Positions 7,523 through 52,682 of a stretch of 64,000 bases of DNA are shown here, piece by piece. The number at the start of each line of letters is the position of its first letter. Positions within the stretch are counted from its first letter, which is position 1. A program made the translations under genes and the position numbers. Under the pieces are notes generated by a model. The model was not told the DNA's origin. It made no database searches and worked only from the letters and a program-made list of their open reading frames with translations. Source of the stretch: Shigella phage ShigP1; sequence record PQ818763; one strand, written 5' to 3'.

Positions 7523-7748
7523 CTTTAGCCTCTATATTAGTTATGTGGAGATCGCTGCGTACTTGGCAGACTTCATCCCGTTTAAAAGGCATGAGCTTTC
7601 CAGTTACCACATCAACACAGTTGACATAATTGTCTGCGTACAATGTGTCGGTTCTAATGTAAAGGGATTCTTTACGCTCAAACAGAACGCCCGGCTTCAT
7701 GTTGTTTAATCGAAGCATTGTACGATCGGATTTAATATTAACTTTCAC
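7512..7748 (-). CDS. small protein, paralog family 1 (GTG start proposed)
   Basis: Track ORF 7512-7856 trimmed to a GTG at 7746-7748 preceded by AGGAG; resulting N-terminus KVNIKSD... matches family member MKVNELNK...; MKPGVLF and CVDVVTG motifs. Confidence 0.4.
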   Translation of the reverse strand: MKVNIKSDRTMLRLNNMKPGVLFERKESLYIRTDTLYADNYVNCVDVVTGKLMPFKRDEVCQVRSDLHITNIEAKDED

Positions 7749-8034
7749 TGTTAATCTCCTGCTGCTTAGCAATAGCCGCTCGCAAGTCTTCATTAGCACG
7801 AGCAAGGCGCAACACTTCATGATTGAGGTTCTGAAGACGTTTGTTTCTGTCTTCAACTTGCATAATAAGATCGTTGAGTGTTACTTTAACTTTCTCATTA
7901 TACATCTCATCCACTCGAACTAGGGATTTATACATTCTTTCCCAGCTTGCTGCTTTATTTCTGAGAATAATAAATCCTAGAACGCTGATAGTTAAACAGC
8001 TTACAAAAAGGAATTTATATACTTCTAAAGTCAT
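7738..8034 (-). CDS. membrane-anchored coiled-coil protein (Rz/i-spanin-like architecture)
   Basis: N-terminal transmembrane helix FLFVSCLTISVLGFIIL followed by heptad-like charged region. Confidence 0.4.
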   Translation of the reverse strand: MTLEVYKFLFVSCLTISVLGFIILRNKAASWERMYKSLVRVDEMYNEKVKVTLNDLIMQVEDRNKRLQNLNHEVLRLARANEDLRAAIAKQQEINSES

Positions 8035-8234: not shown

Positions 8235-8624
8235 TTATTCCCTAGAGCTATTATCGAACACTAAATCACCACAATACATAGGATTGGCATACCATTTTGG
8301 CACCCCTTCGCTCTTACTCTGAAAGTAAGTCCCACTGTACAGCGGAACATAATTCTTCTTAAGGGCACGTTTAGCAAGTCGCTCGCTTTCTCCAATGGCT
8401 TGCTTAGTCATCGGATTTTTATCACGAATCAGCTTTACATAACGTTTATAAGGTTTCTCCTGTTTTAATAGTACCGGAATCCACTCAAACTGGTTCTTTT
8501 GTCTTATCACCTGTTCAGCGGTCAGTTTTCGTTGGGCCATTCTATTTATCACGGTATCCGCAACTAAAGCCTTACATGCGGTTGGCTGATTCCCTGCCTC
8601 ATAATAAATAGTCAATGTCAACAT
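8235..8624 (-). CDS. cell-wall hydrolase, SleB/CwlJ (Hydrolase_2) family
   Basis: Motifs YYEAGNQPTACKALVADTVINR and QFEWIP resemble the SleB/CwlJ catalytic core. Confidence 0.55.
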   Translation of the reverse strand: MLTLTIYYEAGNQPTACKALVADTVINRMAQRKLTAEQVIRQKNQFEWIPVLLKQEKPYKRYVKLIRDKNPMTKQAIGESERLAKRALKKNYVPLYSGTYFQSKSEGVPKWYANPMYCGDLVFDNSSRE

Positions 8625-8734: not shown

Positions 8735-9636
8735 TTACCACTCGTAACTTACACCAGCGCCCAGAACAGCGTCACTCTCTGAAGTCATTGCCACTGATGC
8801 TTTAGTTACTACGTTTTCATTGAAACGAGCACTAACACCAATAGCAAGAGCAGATTCACCATCGTAAGCACCTACCCCAGCACCAACAGAGAAAGCAGAT
8901 CCTTGACTTACTTGCGGGATGTTAGCCATTGCAGCCACGCCAGAAATACCAGCAGAGGCATGATCACGGTTACGGTCTACTTGTTTTTGCAAAGAAGCAA
9001 AACGTTTGTTGGTGGATTGTTCCAGAGCTTTGATAGATTTGGCGTTAGCATTAACGGCAGACATATCTGCATCTTTACCATTTTTGCCATTTAATCCGTC
9101 AACGCCATTCAAACCTGCTGCACCAGTTAGGCCAGTTTCGCCTTTCTTACCATCTGCACCAGAATCACCTTTTTCACCTTGAGCGCCATCTTTACCATCA
9201 ATGCCATCTTTACCATTGATGCCATCTTTACCATCAATGCCATCTTTACCATCAATGCCATCTTNNNNNNNNNNNNNNNNNNNNNNNNNNNNNNNNNNNN
9301 NNNNNNNNNNNNNNNNNNNNNNNNNNNNNNNNNNNNNNNNNNNNNNNNNNNNNNNNNNNCAATGCCATCTTTACCATCAATGCCATCTTTACCATCAATG
9401 CCATTAGTACCATTGATGCCAGCCGATCCAGTATCACCTTTTAAGCCCTGCTCTCCGCGATCACCCTTGTCACCTTTCGGACCTTGTTCGCCTTGAATAC
9501 CCTGTTCTCCTTTATCACCTTTCGGCCCCTGCTGGACTTCACACTGTTTAGAGTGTGAGCATTTGTCAGAATGAGCAAAGGATGGGGCACTAATGGCAGA
9601 TAAAACTAGAATAGCTGACAATGCAAATGCTTTCAT
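8735..9636 (-). CDS. secreted collagen-like protein with YadA-type C-terminal anchor (trimeric-autotransporter-like); interrupted by assembly gap
   Basis: Signal peptide MKAFALSAILVLSAISAPSFA; G-X-Y triplets on both sides of the N-run; (IDGKDG)n encoded by an 18-bp tandem repeat; C-terminus GISGVAAMANIPQ...VGAGVGAYDGESALAIGVSARF...LGAGVSYEW matches the YadA anchor pattern; track ORFs 9127-9708 and 8735-9112 are the two halves put out of frame by the gap. Confidence 0.6.
9185..9410 (-). repeat. 18-bp tandem repeat (CATTGATGGTAAAGATGG on the coding strand) with N-run 9265-9359 inside
   Basis: At least 4 copies left of the gap and about 3 right of it; the gap is flanked by identical repeat units. 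Confidence 0.85.
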
Positions 9637-9661
9637 TTCATGGTTTCCTATATAATAGATA

Positions 9662-9717
9662 CAAAAAAGCCTCCAATTAAGGAGGCGGTAACGCAAAAAG
9701 CCGCCCAAAGGCGGCTA
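9662..9717 (-). terminator. tandem rho-independent terminators (minus strand)
   Basis: Hairpins AGCCGCC-TTTG-GGCGGCT and GCCTCC-TTAATT-GGAGGC, each followed by a T-run on the minus strand. Confidence 0.6.
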
Positions 9718-26219: not shown

Positions 26220-28622
26220 ATGATCGTTTATAATAACCAAGCACCTGATGCAGTGAATAACGTTGGGCAGTTTGGTGCTACTGAAGGCTCTATCGGGGCT
26301 TATAAGCAAGCAGCAGAATATGCAGCTGACTCCAAATATTGGGCACTGTTAGCAGAATCTAAGTTTGGTACAATTGATGATTTAATCGCTGAAGTAGAAC
26401 GTCTATATCAACAGGGTGTTCTGATGAAGCAGGATATTGAAGATCTTAAGCAGGATTTTAAGGATCAAGATGCTCGTTTGATGACTCTGATTGCCCAAAC
26501 CAACGCAGCAGTATCGGATGCTAATAATGCCGTTGCTCTCATTAACCAAAAACTTATTGAAGTCCAGAATCAGCTTGATGTTCTGTTAGGAATGTCTGTT
26601 GATGTAACAACTCTCCCTCCGGGAACTCCGGCTACTGGCTCTTTTAATCCTAACACTGGTGTAATCTCTTTAGGTATTCCAGAAGGTGATCCCGGAAAAG
26701 ATGGTTCTGTTAAGGATTTGGATACAGCACCTACAGGTGTTCCAGAGCTAGGTGATTTAGGTTTCTATGTTGACAAAGATGACAATACCGTCCACAAAAC
26801 TACTCTAGATAACATTGCTAATTTAATCCCATCTGTTCGTTCTGTCTCTATTAACGGCGGTCCAGCTCTTGATGGAGAGGTTGCTCTAACACTTAACAAA
26901 GAGACGGTAGGTTTAGGGAATGTTCTGAACGTTGCTCAGTACAGTCGTCAAGAGATTAATGACAAGTTTGATAAAACCACCAAGACATATCAATCTAAAG
27001 CAGAAGCTGATGCTGACGCTCAGTATCGCCAAGTTGGTGAGAAGGTCTTAGTTTGGGCAGCTACTAAGTATGAATTTTATACTGTTGCTGCTAACAAAAC
27101 ATTAACTCCTGTTAAAACTGAAGGTAGAATTCTTACTGTTAATTCCCGTTCTCCAGACTCCAGTGGTAATATTGACATTACCATTCCAACAGGAAACCCT
27201 TCTCTATATCTTGGTGAGATGGTAATGTTCCCTTATGACCCAACGAAGAATATCTCCTATCCGGGCGTTCTTCCAGCCGATGGTCGTCTAGTGTCTAAAG
27301 AGTCTGCTTCAGATTTAGGCCCATCCCTTGTCAGTGGACAACTTCCTGTTGTTTCTGAAACTGAATGGCAAGCAGGGGCTAAACAATACTTCTCTTGGGG
27401 TAAATTGGCAGATGGTATTACCGATGCAGATTCTACTAATTTTATCAACATTCGACTTCCTGATTGGACTGGAGGGGAGGCAATAAGAGCACCAGATTCT
27501 GATAAAGACTCTCAGTACAATGGGTCTGTACAGGCTCAGAAACCTTATGTTGTTACTGTAAATAACCAAGCTCCTGATGAGATTACTGGTAATGTGAACA
27601 TCTCCAGATCAATTTTAGGTGCTGCCGCTTCTGGTACAAACTCTGATATAACATCCCTCACGGGACTCACTACAGCACTGTCTGTCACACAAGGAGGCAC
27701 TGGAGCTAAAGACGCTGCTAGTGCTCGTTCTAATCTAGGTCTNNNNNNNNNNNNNNNNNNNNNNNNNNNNNNNNNNNNNNNNNNNNNNNNNNNNNNNNNN
27801 NNNNNNNNNNNNNNNNNNNNNNNNNNNNNNNNNNNNNNTGCTGCTAGTGCTCGTTCTAATCTAGGGTTGGGAAGTGTTTCCACTCTGGATAATGTACCTA
27901 TTGCTAATGGTGGGACAGGGGCTGGAGATGCTGCTGGTGCAAGGTTCAATATTGGAGCGCTAAGTAACACCCCAGCAAATTCAGGCGTAGGTGGTACTGG
28001 GGATCGTGTCCAACATGCCTCCGGGAACGGCCTGTTTACTTTAGACTTGTTTAACTGCTACTGGTATATGCAGCCAGAGGATACTAACTTCTGGATTGCC
28101 CACGGTGTGTCATATGCAGGGTCTGGTGGCGAAGCCTCACAATACGGTCGCATATCTTACGCAATAAAGATTGCAGACGGAACAATAAAATATGTCCATT
28201 GTCTTACAAACAAAAACACCACTGTTGATGTAAACGGATTTATCAAAGCGGCATCTCCGGTAGTTCATATTTACTCCGACGGTCGATATGAGACGAACGA
28301 GGAATCTGAGGGGGTTAATGTCATTCGGCAAGGTGTTGGTGAGTACTTGATTACCGGTTGCCTTGGCTTAAACGCAGATGCAAAATGGGGAGGCATTGAC
28401 GGCGGCTTTGAAATCCCTACTGACCGCAACAAACAACCTAGGGTTTGGCTGGACTATGAGATTAAAGAAGATGGTTCTATTTTAGTTAAAACCCATCACA
28501 GAACCCATCCAACCTCTCCGGTTTTTGCTAGAAATGAGATAGAAGGTTTTTCTGACGGTGATCCTATTGATATCCCGAGTGATGCTTTTATTTCAGTTCG
28601 TGTTGAAATGCCTTCTGAGTAA
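26220..28622 (+). CDS. tail fibre or tail spike protein, contains assembly gap
   Basis: 800 aa; repeated motif AASARSNLG either side of N-run 27743-27838; Gly-rich repeats GGTGA...AAGARFNIG. Confidence 0.55.
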   Translation: MIVYNNQAPDAVNNVGQFGATEGSIGAYKQAAEYAADSKYWALLAESKFGTIDDLIAEVERLYQQGVLMKQDIEDLKQDFKDQDARLMTLIAQTNAAVSDANNAVALINQKLIEVQNQLDVLLGMSVDVTTLPPGTPATGSFNPNTGVISLGIPEGDPGKDGSVKDLDTAPTGVPELGDLGFYVDKDDNTVHKTTLDNIANLIPSVRSVSINGGPALDGEVALTLNKETVGLGNVLNVAQYSRQEINDKFDKTTKTYQSKAEADADAQYRQVGEKVLVWAATKYEFYTVAANKTLTPVKTEGRILTVNSRSPDSSGNIDITIPTGNPSLYLGEMVMFPYDPTKNISYPGVLPADGRLVSKESASDLGPSLVSGQLPVVSETEWQAGAKQYFSWGKLADGITDADSTNFINIRLPDWTGGEAIRAPDSDKDSQYNGSVQAQKPYVVTVNNQAPDEITGNVNISRSILGAAASGTNSDITSLTGLTTALSVTQGGTGAKDAASARSNLGXXXXXXXXXXXXXXXXXXXXXXXXXXXXXXXXXAASARSNLGLGSVSTLDNVPIANGGTGAGDAAGARFNIGALSNTPANSGVGGTGDRVQHASGNGLFTLDLFNCYWYMQPEDTNFWIAHGVSYAGSGGEASQYGRISYAIKIADGTIKYVHCLTNKNTTVDVNGFIKAASPVVHIYSDGRYETNEESEGVNVIRQGVGEYLITGCLGLNADAKWGGIDGGFEIPTDRNKQPRVWLDYEIKEDGSILVKTHHRTHPTSPVFARNEIEGFSDGDPIDIPSDAFISVRVEMPSE

Positions 28623-30953: not shown

Positions 30954-31172
30954 ATGAAAATGATGAAACAAGCTGCATATGGTTTAATATGTTTAGGCGC
31001 AGGTGTTGTGGTATCCACCGCAGTTCCTGTAGGCGCAGTTCATCCATTAGTAACTGTCCCTGCTCCAGTAGAGAAGCTTAGCTCTCAATGCAAGCAGAGA
31101 ACAATTCAAAATAACTTAGTTGTTATTTGCCCTGATGCTGAATCTAACGCTCTGAGAAAGATACTACCTTAA
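30954..31172 (+). CDS. small membrane protein, holin candidate
   Basis: One transmembrane segment AAYGLICLGAGVVVSTAVPVGAV; immediately upstream of the endolysin. Confidence 0.35.
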   Translation: MKMMKQAAYGLICLGAGVVVSTAVPVGAVHPLVTVPAPVEKLSSQCKQRTIQNNLVVICPDAESNALRKILP

Positions 31173-31201
31173 TTTAAAGGGACTACAAAAGGAGGTTAGA
31201 A

Positions 31202-31693
31202 ATGGATAACGTCGCATTGCCACCTGTACAACTAAACTTAAGCCCAGCTGGAATGGAATTCATCATGAAGCATGAGGGTATGAGAACAAAGGCTTATAAA
31301 GATTCCGCAGGTATCTGGACTATATGTGTAGGGGCTACGCGCGATATGAATGGTTATCCGGTTAGACAAGGATTAACGTATTCTATAGAGGATTGTCTAG
31401 CTCTGCTAGATAGAGACACACAAGACTCTGTTCGTGCTACTCAGAAGAACATAAAGGTTCCTTTACTAGTTCATGAGTTTGATGCACTCACTTCTTTCAA
31501 CTTCAATGTTGGCAGTGGAGCTTTGAGCACATCTAAGTTAAGGAAGGTAATCAATGGAGATGTTAAGGGGGATGTTTATTCCGAATTTCTTCGTTGGGAT
31601 AAAATAACGGTCAAGGGAGAGAAGCAGAGAAGTCAGGGTCTTCATAATAGAAGAGTTGCAGAAGCTAATCTTTACACCGAAGGTAAATATTAA
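31202..31693 (+). CDS. endolysin, GH24 (T4/lambda-type) lysozyme
   Basis: FIMKHEGMRTKAYKDSAGIWTICVGAT with catalytic Glu in HEG; conserved Asp and Thr positions. Confidence 0.75.
   Translation: MDNVALPPVQLNLSPAGMEFIMKHEGMRTKAYKDSAGIWTICVGATRDMNGYPVRQGLTYSIEDCLALLDRDTQDSVRATQKNIKVPLLVHEFDALTSFNFNVGSGALSTSKLRKVINGDVKGDVYSEFLRWDKITVKGEKQRSQGLHNRRVAEANLYTEGKY

Positions 31694-49470: not shown

Positions 49471-49480
<10 letters not shown>
48944..49480 (-). CDS. DUF3310-like protein
   Basis: C-terminal GGAHYNPESKIIQPVEFYHANPQLNFQQTNMIKYAYRHKDKNKVQDLLKVVHYAL matches the DUF3310 pattern as recalled. Confidence 0.4.
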
Positions 49481-50966
<1,486 letters not shown>

Positions 50967-50967
<1 letters not shown>

Positions 50968-51227
50968 TATTCTATTCCACGCTCTTTCAGAGCTTCTAAC
51001 AATCCATTGTGATTGGCAGCACATTCTGTGTACTGGTCCTGATACCACTCCAACGTAGTGGCTAATGCTTTTCCTTGAGCACTTTCTAAAAGAGGCAGGT
51101 CAACCCTACATTCAGCTTTTAGGTTTGTTGGTAAGGGCATTGATTGCCTGCTGTTGTCGCTCGTTGAACAAGCTGACATACTCATCACTAGCGCAGACAT
51201 TATAAAAAACTGGTTTAGTTTTCTCAT
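50967..51227 (-). CDS. putative o-spanin (Rz1-like outer-membrane lipoprotein)
   Basis: Signal peptide MRKLNQFFIMSALVMSMSAC with lipobox-like SAC; Pro-containing mature part; starts inside the i-spanin candidate in another frame and extends past its stop. Confidence 0.45.
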
Positions 51228-51462
51228 AATGCATCTCTTTATAAACGGTTTCCGTGTTCTTCTTCCAGTTAGATAAACCGGTAAGAACTCTCTGAGCAAC
51301 TTCATCAGCTGCTCTACTTCTTTCAATCTCTAACTCTTGCTGGTGCTTCTCTTTGTCCAGATTACTGCTGTCTGTTTGATATTCGTTAAACTTCATACCA
51401 CCAAAGAATACAAGAGCTGAGAAAACGATAAACCCTAAGTTATCACTTAATGTGTTTTGCAT
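51112..51462 (-). CDS. putative i-spanin (Rz-like)
   Basis: N-terminal transmembrane helix LGFIVFSALVFFGG then periplasmic coiled coil; start trimmed to ATG 51462 (GGAG upstream). Confidence 0.45.
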   Translation of the reverse strand: MQNTLSDNLGFIVFSALVFFGGMKFNEYQTDSSNLDKEKHQQELEIERSRAADEVAQRVLTGLSNWKKNTETVYKEMHYEKTKPVFYNVCASDEYVSLFNERQQQAINALTNKPKS

Positions 51463-51473
51463 GTTGTCTCCAA

Positions 51474-51498
51474 CGAAAAAAGCCACCCGGAGGTGGCT
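51474..51498 (-). terminator. rho-independent terminator (minus strand)
   Basis: AGCCACC-TCCG-GGTGGCT followed by TTTTTTCG on the minus strand. Confidence 0.6.
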
Positions 51499-51519
51499 AA
51501 GCTATAACAAGGAGAGTTA

Positions 51520-52266
51520 TTAGAATGGGCTATCGTTGTCGTCTTCGTAAGTAGAAGCAGGCTCTTTATCAATCGTAGGGATTGAAGGAGTAGCTTCTTT
51601 CTGCTCTGTTTCAGAAGCACGAGTAATTTCACGACCAGCCAGAGGCATGTTCTTAGCGTCATTAGCTTGAGTAAGCAGGTTGCGCTGGAACGGGAACATC
51701 AGTTGATAGGATGCTACGTTCTCATCGGTTTCAGCATACGGTTCGAAGAATACCAGAGGACTACGAGCTTCACCAACTGCTGCACGATATTTGGTTGGGA
51801 TTGGAGAAATGGTCTTGATGGAGTTTTTAACTTCACCAGATTTGTTAGTATAAGAGTTAACCAGAATGTTAACAGGCTGACCTAACAGAACATCCTTGAA
51901 CCAAGACAGATCACCTTTCAGTGCTTGAATACTTGGGTCAATCATTTTGCAAAGATCAAGAATACCAGAGTTCTTAGCTCGTGGGTTTACATCATAGCTC
52001 TTGAACTGGCAAGCTGGACGTGGTTCTAATGCCTTACCATCGGAATCTTTACCAGTAGCATCAACACCAATCAGCTCGAAAGCTAAATCCATACGGAAAG
52101 CCGGATTCTTAGGAGTTACTGCTTTGGTCTTCGGGTCAATCCAAGGGTCACGATTGTGAACACCCAAACCTACTACACGAACGATACGTGCTTCGTATTC
52201 ACCATCAGGGATTACATCGTAGTTGGATTTACGGGAAGCAGTTGCGATAGTTGGAATCATAGACAT
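51520..52266 (-). CDS. putative single-stranded DNA-binding protein
   Basis: C-terminal acidic tail YEDDNDSPF resembles the SSB tail DDDIPF; N-terminal fold not assessed. Confidence 0.4.
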   Translation of the reverse strand: MSMIPTIATASRKSNYDVIPDGEYEARIVRVVGLGVHNRDPWIDPKTKAVTPKNPAFRMDLAFELIGVDATGKDSDGKALEPRPACQFKSYDVNPRAKNSGILDLCKMIDPSIQALKGDLSWFKDVLLGQPVNILVNSYTNKSGEVKNSIKTISPIPTKYRAAVGEARSPLVFFEPYAETDENVASYQLMFPFQRNLLTQANDAKNMPLAGREITRASETEQKEATPSIPTIDKEPASTYEDDNDSPF

Positions 52267-52682
52267 ATTTTAATTTCCTTATTTAATTTGAAAGATTGTT
52301 GCTCTCTTTGAGCGGTTATGTATAGTATACATTACGCTTATACCGATAAGAGTACTATATAATATAAGTATCTTTGGTAGTAGATATAACACACTAGTAA
52401 TGTATATATTGTATAGCTGATAAAGTTATTGCAGGCTTGTATATTGGGCAATTCACAGAATCCCTTGCAAGTACCGAAGGGCAGGAGCCACCTGCGAGAT
52501 AAAAATAGAGAATTAAGGAATCCTTGATTTAGGTTGTAGGGACTCCTAGGGACTTTGATTCTCTATTTAAAAGAATATTAATTACTTATTACCTAAATAA
52601 TTAACTAACCTACTTAAACCAAATTCAAGAATAATAGATAAAAAGATTATTCCTAAGAAAGCTAAAAAGTAAAGGATATAAG

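Follow-up and report, generated by a model that had tools for sequence, protein, structure and literature searches.

The genes for the spanins Rz and Rz1 of phage lambda close the lysis cassette. Rz is a type II inner-membrane protein, Rz1 is a lipoprotein of the outer membrane whose gene is read in the +1 frame, and the pair has periplasmic cysteines (Kongari et al. 2018, BMC Bioinformatics 19:326, PMC6139136). Disulfide-linked spanin complexes are restrained by peptidoglycan until the wall is removed (Kongari et al. 2018). A position remote from the endolysin gene does not disqualify spanin genes, as those of T4, PseT.3 and PseT.2, lie far from both the holin gene t and the endolysin gene e; they encode proteins of 117 and 83 aa, the o-spanin having a predicted C-terminal helix (Kongari et al. 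2018). Proteus phage Privateer provides another case of spanin genes remote from the endolysin gene.

The pair described here is already known, since it was catalogued in 2018 in phiEco32-like coliphages. In the classification of Kongari et al. (2018), the i-spanins of phiEco32, NJ01, KBNP1711 and ECBP2 belong to the JH2 i-spanin family, and the kuravirus o-spanins make up a family of their own with four members. The table rows for NJ01, KBNP1711 and ECBP2 give lengths of 116 and 86 aa, the class "ovl", an overlap of 115-116 nt and cleavage before CST/CSM; the length tables give the same 116 and 86 aa for phiEco32. In the rows for NJ01, KBNP1711 and ECBP2, the curators moved the o-spanin start upstream to gain a LipoP signal, and such a signal is recorded for these three o-spanins in the supplement. 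Similarly, a pair consisting of a TMD protein and a lipobox protein was detected by DeepTMHMM and SignalP in kuravirus ZCEC16 (in a 2026 paper), and a 2025 paper lists a holin, an endolysin and a distant o-spanin on the complement strand. RefSeq labels the homologues of phiEco32 gp39 "Rz-like spanin" and the partner is called "o-spanin" in a few records. A genus-wide review from 2023 names the holin and the endolysin as the sole lysis genes; this omission shows that the pair is often overlooked, though it is not new. In the literature searched, we found no experiments on these two proteins or on any kuravirus spanin.

The window, i.e. the whole 64,000-nt stretch of DNA analysed, comes from a Kuravirus, a phiEco32-like E. 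coli podophage of the subfamily Gordonclarkvirinae. In its region 50400-52300, identity is 99.2% to Escherichia phage MN03 (window coordinate = MN03 coordinate + 9600) and 98.4% to phiEco32, and the records matching this region (98/98) all come from Kuravirus-group phages of Escherichia or Shigella. Two overlapping minus-strand genes in this region very probably encode the two-component spanin of the phage, judging from their sequences. They and their neighbours are arranged as follows:

50527-50967, minus strand: macrodomain gene, 146 aa, PF01661 Macro (E=8.2e-11), downstream neighbour of the o-spanin gene
50967-51227, minus strand: predicted o-spanin gene, 86 aa, ATG start, +1 frame relative to the i-spanin gene, PHROG 2425 (E=3.5e-27)
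51112-51227, minus strand: dual-coding overlap of 116 nt, encoding i-spanin aa 79-116 plus the stop codon and o-spanin aa 1-39
51168-51170, minus strand: codon of the o-spanin lipobox Cys20, the first residue of a predicted mature lipoprotein of 67 aa
51171-51227, minus strand: predicted o-spanin signal peptide, aa 1-19, MRKLNQFFIMSALVMSMSA, followed by CSTSD
51112-51462, minus strand: predicted i-spanin gene (phiEco32 gp39 homologue), 116 aa, ATG start, PHROG 1152 'Rz-like spanin' (E=2.7e-37)
51467-51471, minus strand: i-spanin Shine-Dalgarno sequence, GGAGA, 5 nt upstream of the i-spanin ATG
51520-52266, minus strand: gp40-like gene (phiEco32 gp40 homologue), 248 aa, PHROG 6599 of unknown function, upstream neighbour of the i-spanin gene

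Both open reading frames were found where the sequence-only reading had placed them, on the minus strand, which it had left unstated. Its central proposal, an overlapped pair of i- and o-spanin genes, was borne out by the PHROG and tblastn searches, by conservation and by nucleotide diversity, and is in agreement with the census of Kongari et al. (2018). The pair had also been placed between an SSB-like gene and a macrodomain gene. The macrodomain is recognizable (PF01661) and the gp40-like protein ends with an acidic, SSB-like C-terminus (...DDNDSPF), but neither an SSB family match nor a PDB sequence match was found for this protein, so that the SSB part of the description holds only for the acidic tail. 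The stop codon of the o-spanin gene and the ATG of the macrodomain gene share TAATG (50969-50965). The order of the gp40-like gene and the spanin pair is kept even in a relative with 48% identity on an 88-kb IMG/VR contig; the IMG/VR scan gave only 6 loci, and most of these were copies of phages already known.

The proteins encoded in the window are close to those of the catalogued phages. Compared with phiEco32, NJ01 and KBNP1711, the i-spanin is 94-99% and the o-spanin 84-99% identical, with the same starts, and compared with ECBP2, whose i-spanin is one residue shorter, the identities are ~80% and ~77%. Only two residues distinguish the o-spanin from that of NJ01, and there is no substantive difference from the phiEco32-group pairs.

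The i-spanin contains one strongly hydrophobic segment, aa 9-23 (LGFIVFSALVFFGGM, KD15 = 2.23, codons 51394-51438), and none elsewhere according to hydropathy. This is the N-terminal transmembrane helix which had been proposed for the ORF 51112-51462. With a single N-terminal TMD and the rest of the protein downstream of it, the protein has the predicted topology of a type II i-spanin. Its N-terminus, MQNTLSDN, is without positive charge, an unusual feature in an N-in anchor, and an uncharged i-spanin N-terminus is likewise flagged in the table of Kongari et al. (2018). In the same table, which bears on the putative periplasmic coiled coil of the sequence-only reading, the phiEco32 i-spanin is listed with 61% helix and no coiled-coil segment and the NJ01 i-spanin with one coiled-coil segment at aa 24-51. 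The AlphaFold model of the window i-spanin, computed from the single sequence with low confidence (mean pLDDT 56), contains helices at aa 3-25 and aa 36-111. The only periplasmic cysteine is Cys90. The Shine-Dalgarno sequence is at the same site as that marked for NJ01 and KBNP1711 in the supplement of Kongari et al. (2018). Position 51486, the outer end of the interval proposed earlier for the pair, is that of a GTG-extended form of the i-spanin ORF; this GTG lies inside the stem of a hairpin and its use as a start is unlikely. Pfam and NCBIfam searches gave no meaningful match for either spanin, and no PDB sequence match was found for the i-spanin.

The o-spanin sequence agrees with a lipoprotein signal of the PROSITE PS51257 type, applied here as K/R within the first 7 residues, an uncharged h-region, a lipobox and a cysteine: it has R2/K3, an uncharged h-region, the lipobox MSAC and Cys20, with Ser at +2. 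Sorting to the outer membrane is predicted since the residue after the cysteine is not Asp. The lipoprotein-like signal peptide ending in SAC and the short Pro-containing mature domain of the earlier description were thus both recovered. The mature part of 67 aa contains 3 Pro (4.5%) and 2 further cysteines, Cys40 and Cys69, and a C-terminal helix is predicted in the single-sequence AlphaFold model, again with low confidence (pLDDT 59). Given the low confidence of the AlphaFold models of both spanins, we regard the helical content as weakly supported by them. Besides PHROG 2425, the o-spanin weakly matches PHROG 456 'Rz-like spanin' (E=1.3e-3). It is the only ATG-initiated lipobox ORF in the 64-kb window. 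Starts of ORFs following the lipobox rule are, however, not above chance (2 in the window vs a mean of 2.5 in 60 shuffles), and the significance of the signal therefore rests on its conservation.

Relatives of the i-spanin were detected by tblastn in 434 phage records and relatives of the o-spanin in 253. Those with 28-40% identity which are annotated as i- or o-spanins come from Felixounavirus, Sashavirus (9NA-like), Gorganvirus and Erwinia phages. The window pair resembles the spanins of Felixounavirus (JH2/Felix O1) and Sashavirus in sequence (~33% identity for the i-spanin and 28-35% for the o-spanin), in the +1-frame overlap and in the cysteine positions, whereas the pairs of these two genera lie in or near a lysis cassette. 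The homologous overlapped pair of Salmonella phage Solent is the last part of a curated cassette with the order holin-endolysin-holin-i-spanin-o-spanin. That of Proteus phage RS10pmA comes after a peptidase, and that of one Felix O1-like phage is 1.2 kb from the lysin. The kuravirus o-spanins form a family separate from the JH2/Felix O1 and 9NA-like o-spanins in the clustering of Kongari et al. (2018), and are weakly linked to them by tblastn and PHROG 456. The pair is homologous to recognized spanin families through PHROG 1152, PHROG 456 and the tblastn matches to curated spanins.

Conservation was compared at 20 loci with 28-100% identity. At all of them (20/20), the Met and basic residues of the o-spanin are retained in its homologues, as are a hydrophobic stretch, an [AGS]-Cys lipobox and both of the further cysteines, and the single cysteine of the i-spanin homologues is kept within NVC/NEC (20/20). 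The periplasmic cysteines, i.e. Cys90 of the i-spanin and Cys40 and Cys69 of the o-spanin, are kept down to 28-33% identity and may form disulfides. The predicted pair is like lambda Rz/Rz1, which also combine a type II inner-membrane protein with a +1-frame outer-membrane lipoprotein and have periplasmic cysteines (Kongari et al. 2018), although no sequence similarity to Rz/Rz1 is detectable. Lambda Rz1 is fully embedded, Pro-rich and unstructured, whereas the window o-spanin is overlapped, contains 4.5% Pro and has a predicted C-terminal helix. The T4 pair is similar in its remote position, in protein size and in the predicted C-terminal helix of the o-spanin; in contrast to the window, its genes are separated and its sequence family is unrelated.

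The o-spanin gene starts 116 nt before the stop codon of the i-spanin gene and ends 145 nt beyond it, which is the 'overlapped' class. The description of a gene beginning within the i-spanin gene in another frame and running past its stop proved correct, with an overlap of 116 nt in the +1 frame. Among 13 kuravirus-group sequences, mean pairwise nucleotide diversity is 0.103 in the overlap, compared with 0.210 in the i-spanin-only part and 0.224 in the o-spanin-only part, and outside the overlap each gene varies most at the third codon positions of its own frame (0.32 and 0.40). Lower diversity in the overlap, here by half, is what dual coding predicts, and both reading frames are under selection. 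In the part of the overlap which encodes the signal peptide, the diversity at i-spanin third positions (0.223) is only slightly lower than in the adjacent i-spanin-only codons (0.270; 29 codons), a small and not decisive difference.

Seven kuraviruses (KM01, E20-1, EK010, SU7, PAS59, Bas86 and Bas87), represented by 9/98 records, carry an HNH endonuclease gene (PHROG 99) between the two spanin genes; the window itself has the unsplit, overlapped form. In KM01, the insertion comprises ~537 nt and lies at window position 51175-51182. The i-spanin of the split relatives gains a different tail of 16-19 aa, and the old o-spanin start remains inside the i-spanin gene with its cysteine lost. New n- and h-regions of the o-spanin come from the 3' end of the endonuclease gene, read in another frame, and join the original lipobox in frame (in KM01 ...KKKLLSCTGILLAFSLSAC followed by SMSD, in PAS59 MLTKKKQKSCLVIFLASSLMAC followed by STSD). 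A similar split by a GIY-YIG homing endonuclease was described in a comparison of T5 with Shivani and phiR201 spanins (Kongari et al. 2018). The kuravirus case parallels that of T5 versus Shivani and phiR201 in the altered extreme C-terminus of the i-spanin and the renewed o-spanin signal, with HNH instead of GIY-YIG; as the T5/Shivani split had already been described, the HNH split is a parallel case and not a new phenomenon.

These split genomes bear directly on the question of which o-spanin form is made. Most GenBank records annotate only a form of 57 aa, starting at 51140 (MPLPTNL...) and without a signal. If this form were the only one translated, the protein would be soluble and the upstream lipobox would be a by-product of i-spanin coding. 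The 174-nt ORF is annotated in most records, including phiEco32 gp38, an AGG precedes the ATG at 51140, a lipobox pattern can occur by chance, and third-position constraint in the signal-peptide part is only slightly raised. We nevertheless consider this reading highly improbable. The long frame is open in all relatives down to 28% identity, always with a Met, K/R, a hydrophobic stretch and [AGS]-C, and is kept even in phages with an i-spanin C-terminus of unrelated sequence. In the genomes split by the endonuclease, the signal peptide was renewed from different DNA and the cysteine was kept, which shows that the lipoprotein signal is under selection and argues against the 57-aa form. The start was moved upstream for the same reason in the curated rows of Kongari et al. 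(2018), and gene callers are known to penalize overlaps. The value of the 86-aa o-spanin is mainly one of annotation, i.e. the correct o-spanin start in kuravirus records: in RefSeq, the o-spanins of phiEco32, MN03 and SU10 are still 57-aa "hypothetical proteins" without a signal peptide, and the 86-aa start would complete the holin/endolysin/spanin lysis system for kuraviruses that are candidates for therapy.

The other genes discussed in connection with lysis lie elsewhere in the window:

8235-8624, minus strand: SleB-like Hydrolase_2 protein, 129 aa, a real domain match, ~200 nt upstream of the ORF 7738-8034
30954-31172, plus strand: predicted holin gene, 72 aa, one hydrophobic segment, PHROG 11161 (E=2.8e-50), annotated as holin in MN03
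31202-31693, plus strand: GH24 (T4-lysozyme-type) endolysin gene, 163 aa, PF00959 (E=3.7e-32), PHROG 7 endolysin (E=4e-46)

The holin and endolysin genes are among the late structural genes (late operon) on the strand opposite to the spanin genes. The distance from the endolysin gene to the stop codon of the o-spanin gene is 19,274 nt, in agreement with the ~20 kb of the sequence-only reading. The locus is not a classical lysis cassette, as the spanin genes are 19.3 kb away in a minus-strand cluster of middle genes. Lysis genes are not usually found among middle genes. After T4, this is a further example that spanin genes need not be late or located in the lysis cassette, and the remote placement fits the view that spanins are inactive until peptidoglycan is removed. 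The kuravirus spanin pair opens no new question, being a known family with a known overlapped architecture and a remote placement that has precedent. The endolysin of a relative was described in one paper as a SAR endolysin; in the window endolysin, a SAR anchor segment is not evident because KD15 of the N-terminus reaches a maximum of only 0.82 and the N-terminus contains three prolines.

The distance from the holin and endolysin genes is also among the grounds for a different view of the pair, namely that a membrane protein and a lipoprotein act together outside lysis, in a role suited to middle genes (e.g. in superinfection exclusion or envelope remodelling), and that the outer membrane is disrupted in another way. 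The genes are indeed in a replication/regulation cluster beside the sigma factor gene, at a distance of 19 kb from the holin and endolysin genes, which are on the opposite strand, and the genus-level review names only these two for lysis. We regard a non-lysis role as very unlikely, since both proteins are homologous to pairs which end canonical lysis cassettes in other phages, the lipobox scan revealed no other spanin candidate in the 64-kb window, and the spanin genes of T4 and Privateer are far from the endolysin gene as well. A second i-spanin had been proposed for the ORF 7738-8034, making a third lysis locus together with the neighbouring SleB-like hydrolase. Of the 98 aa encoded by this ORF, the N-terminal part is a hydrophobic helix (KD15 2.58) and the rest is charged and prone to form helices, and the hydrolase beside it is a genuine Hydrolase_2 protein. 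However, a transmembrane helix with a helical tail is very common among small proteins, and the ORF matches only PHROG 12154, labelled 'DNA helicase' (E=1.2e-57), being hypothetical or 'DNA helicase' in public records. The PHROG search gave no spanin family match and there is no similarity to the i-spanin; a scan of the window found no lipobox ORF embedded in it, overlapping or adjoining it; and its sole cysteine, at position 13, lies inside the hydrophobic segment, leaving no periplasmic cysteine. Homology, lipoprotein partner and periplasmic cysteine are all missing, which makes an i-spanin at this site extremely unlikely, and we found nothing tying the Hydrolase_2 protein 8235-8624 to lysis. 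Instead of the three dispersed lysis loci suggested before, two are supported, one with the holin and endolysin genes and the other with the spanin genes.

If the two proteins function as an overlapped spanin pair, their action may be outlined by analogy with lambda Rz/Rz1. The 116-aa i-spanin would be anchored in the inner membrane via its N-terminal helix with a mostly helical domain in the periplasm, and the 86-aa o-spanin would be exported, cleaved by signal peptidase II, lipidated at Cys20 and, having Ser at +2, sorted to the outer membrane. As in lambda, the C-terminal regions of the two proteins may interact, giving a complex that crosses the periplasm through the peptidoglycan mesh, and the conserved periplasmic cysteines may form homotypic disulfides. 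After triggering by the holin and destruction of the peptidoglycan by the GH24 endolysin, the freed complexes would complete lysis by fusing the inner with the outer membrane. Early synthesis of the spanins would be harmless because spanins are inactive until peptidoglycan is removed.

Three elements found upstream of the spanin genes suggest how they may be expressed:

52326-52334, minus strand: putative gp36-type middle promoter motif TAATGTATA, upstream of the gp40-like gene, found by motif search
51511-51516, minus strand: CUCUCC element flanking the hairpin, which can pair with the i-spanin Shine-Dalgarno sequence (GGAGA)
51475-51498, minus strand: terminator-like hairpin AGCCACC-TCCG-GGTGGCT with a T-run after it, located between the gp40-like and i-spanin genes, found by terminator scan

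The sequence aagcgtaatgtatactatacataacc at 52340-52315 (minus strand), which carries the motif TAATGTATA, is identical to the 'middle promoter between CDS37 and CDS38' of phage SU10 (Table S2 of PMC4281155), and the consensus of gp36-type promoters has been described (PMC12276001). This promoter likely drives a transcription unit comprising the gp40-like, i-spanin, o-spanin and macrodomain genes. In the literature on phiEco32 and SU10, the minus-strand block which holds the spanin genes is assigned to the middle class. The motif and the literature together suggest that the spanin genes would be transcribed with the middle (replication-type) genes from a gp36-dependent promoter. Possible σ70-like promoters inside the pair (e.g. 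ATGAGA-17-TATAAT, 51227-51199) are not enriched (12 vs 14.8 in shuffles) and were not considered further.

The hairpin, located just 5' of the i-spanin start, is kept in 12/12 kuravirus-group loci with the loop UUCG or UCCG, and also at ~78% identity and in loci with the HNH gene inserted upstream. Including the outer CUCUCC:GGAGA helix, its folding energy is -16.6 to -19.5 kcal/mol. It is not among the four SU10 terminators listed in PMC4281155. The motif and the literature suggest that the hairpin attenuates expression, and it probably lowers that of the spanins relative to the abundant gp40-like protein. We propose only tentatively, and with more doubt than confidence, that the spanin might be uncoupled from the holin-endolysin timer as a gp36-dependent middle product, its dose set by the hairpin and the anti-Shine-Dalgarno element and the envelope pre-loaded with it before lysis. 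The sigma factor gene, which follows the macrodomain gene, has its own σ70-like promoter, TGGACA-18-TATAAT, at 50555-50526.

In 7 kuraviruses (9 of the 98 records), the spanin overlap is interrupted by an HNH homing-endonuclease gene, and the two spanin genes, otherwise overlapped, are thereby separated.

L016 (KM01, PV018827), 673-1209: HNH insert in the spanin overlap
L015 (PAS59, OQ921332) and L020 (E20-1), two further related loci: HNH insert in the spanin overlap

The position equivalent to the insertion point of these three loci is 51175-51182 in the window. In the split kuraviruses, the insert encodes a new C-terminal tail of the i-spanin and also provides a new n/h-region of the o-spanin signal peptide, which is fused to the original lipobox Cys. 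This replacement n/h-region is encoded by another frame of the 3' end of the endonuclease gene. The HNH-split spanins of kuraviruses are parallel to the T5/Shivani GIY-YIG case (Kongari et al. 2018, PMC6139136).

Another endonuclease gene and a hairpin were found upstream of the i-spanin gene.

L004 (SU10), 1422-1835; also in L005 (CHD5UKE1): second, different HNH endonuclease gene (PHROG 959)
51475-51516, minus strand: terminator-like hairpin (loop UCCG/UUCG, T-run), with CUCUCC upstream

The PHROG 959 gene of SU10 and CHD5UKE1 lies between the gp40-like gene and the hairpin. Since this site is distinct from that in the spanin overlap, there are two independent endonuclease insertion sites within a short region. 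The hairpin, which immediately precedes the Shine-Dalgarno sequence of the i-spanin gene, is kept invariant across the kuravirus-group loci (77-99% identity), and the upstream CUCUCC is able to pair with that Shine-Dalgarno sequence. The hairpin is absent from the four terminators listed for SU10.

Downstream, the spanin pair and the macrodomain gene are followed by two more genes.

49471-49863 and 49860-50507, minus strand: gp36-type sigma factor (PHROG 1740) and SLOG/YspA-like protein (PF10686)

Depending on the record, these genes are labelled 'GTP-binding domain', 'chromosome segregation protein' or hypothetical, which shows that kuravirus annotation is inconsistent.

The endolysin of a related kuravirus was termed a SAR endolysin in the paper on that phage, and its holin was described there as having no transmembrane domain. 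The endolysin encoded within 30954-31693 (plus strand) of the window has an only weakly hydrophobic N-terminus (maximum KD15 hydropathy score 0.82, three Pro), and in the 72-aa holin a single segment, aa 6-30, is clearly hydrophobic.

Further features were found in the early region, and two runs of bases are masked.

8235-8624, minus strand: SleB-type cell-wall hydrolase domain protein, 129 aa (PF07486)
8735-9112 and 9127-9708, minus strand: YadA-like trimeric-autotransporter anchor (PF03895, E=4.7e-20) and the preceding collagen-like ORF
9265-9359 (95 bases) and 27743-27838 (96 bases): masked N runs

The SleB-type protein (score 32.2 bits, cut-off 27), encoded in the early region, carries neither a signal peptide nor a transmembrane domain and is distinct from both the GH24 endolysin and the virion transglycosylase annotated in MN03. 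The phage-encoded YadA-like anchor gene, also located in the early region, is variously labelled agglutinating adhesin, YadA-like protein or tail protein. The ORF preceding it specifies a signal peptide as well as G-X-Y repeats of the collagen type; the first N run lies inside this repeat ORF and breaks up the anchor and collagen-like ORF.
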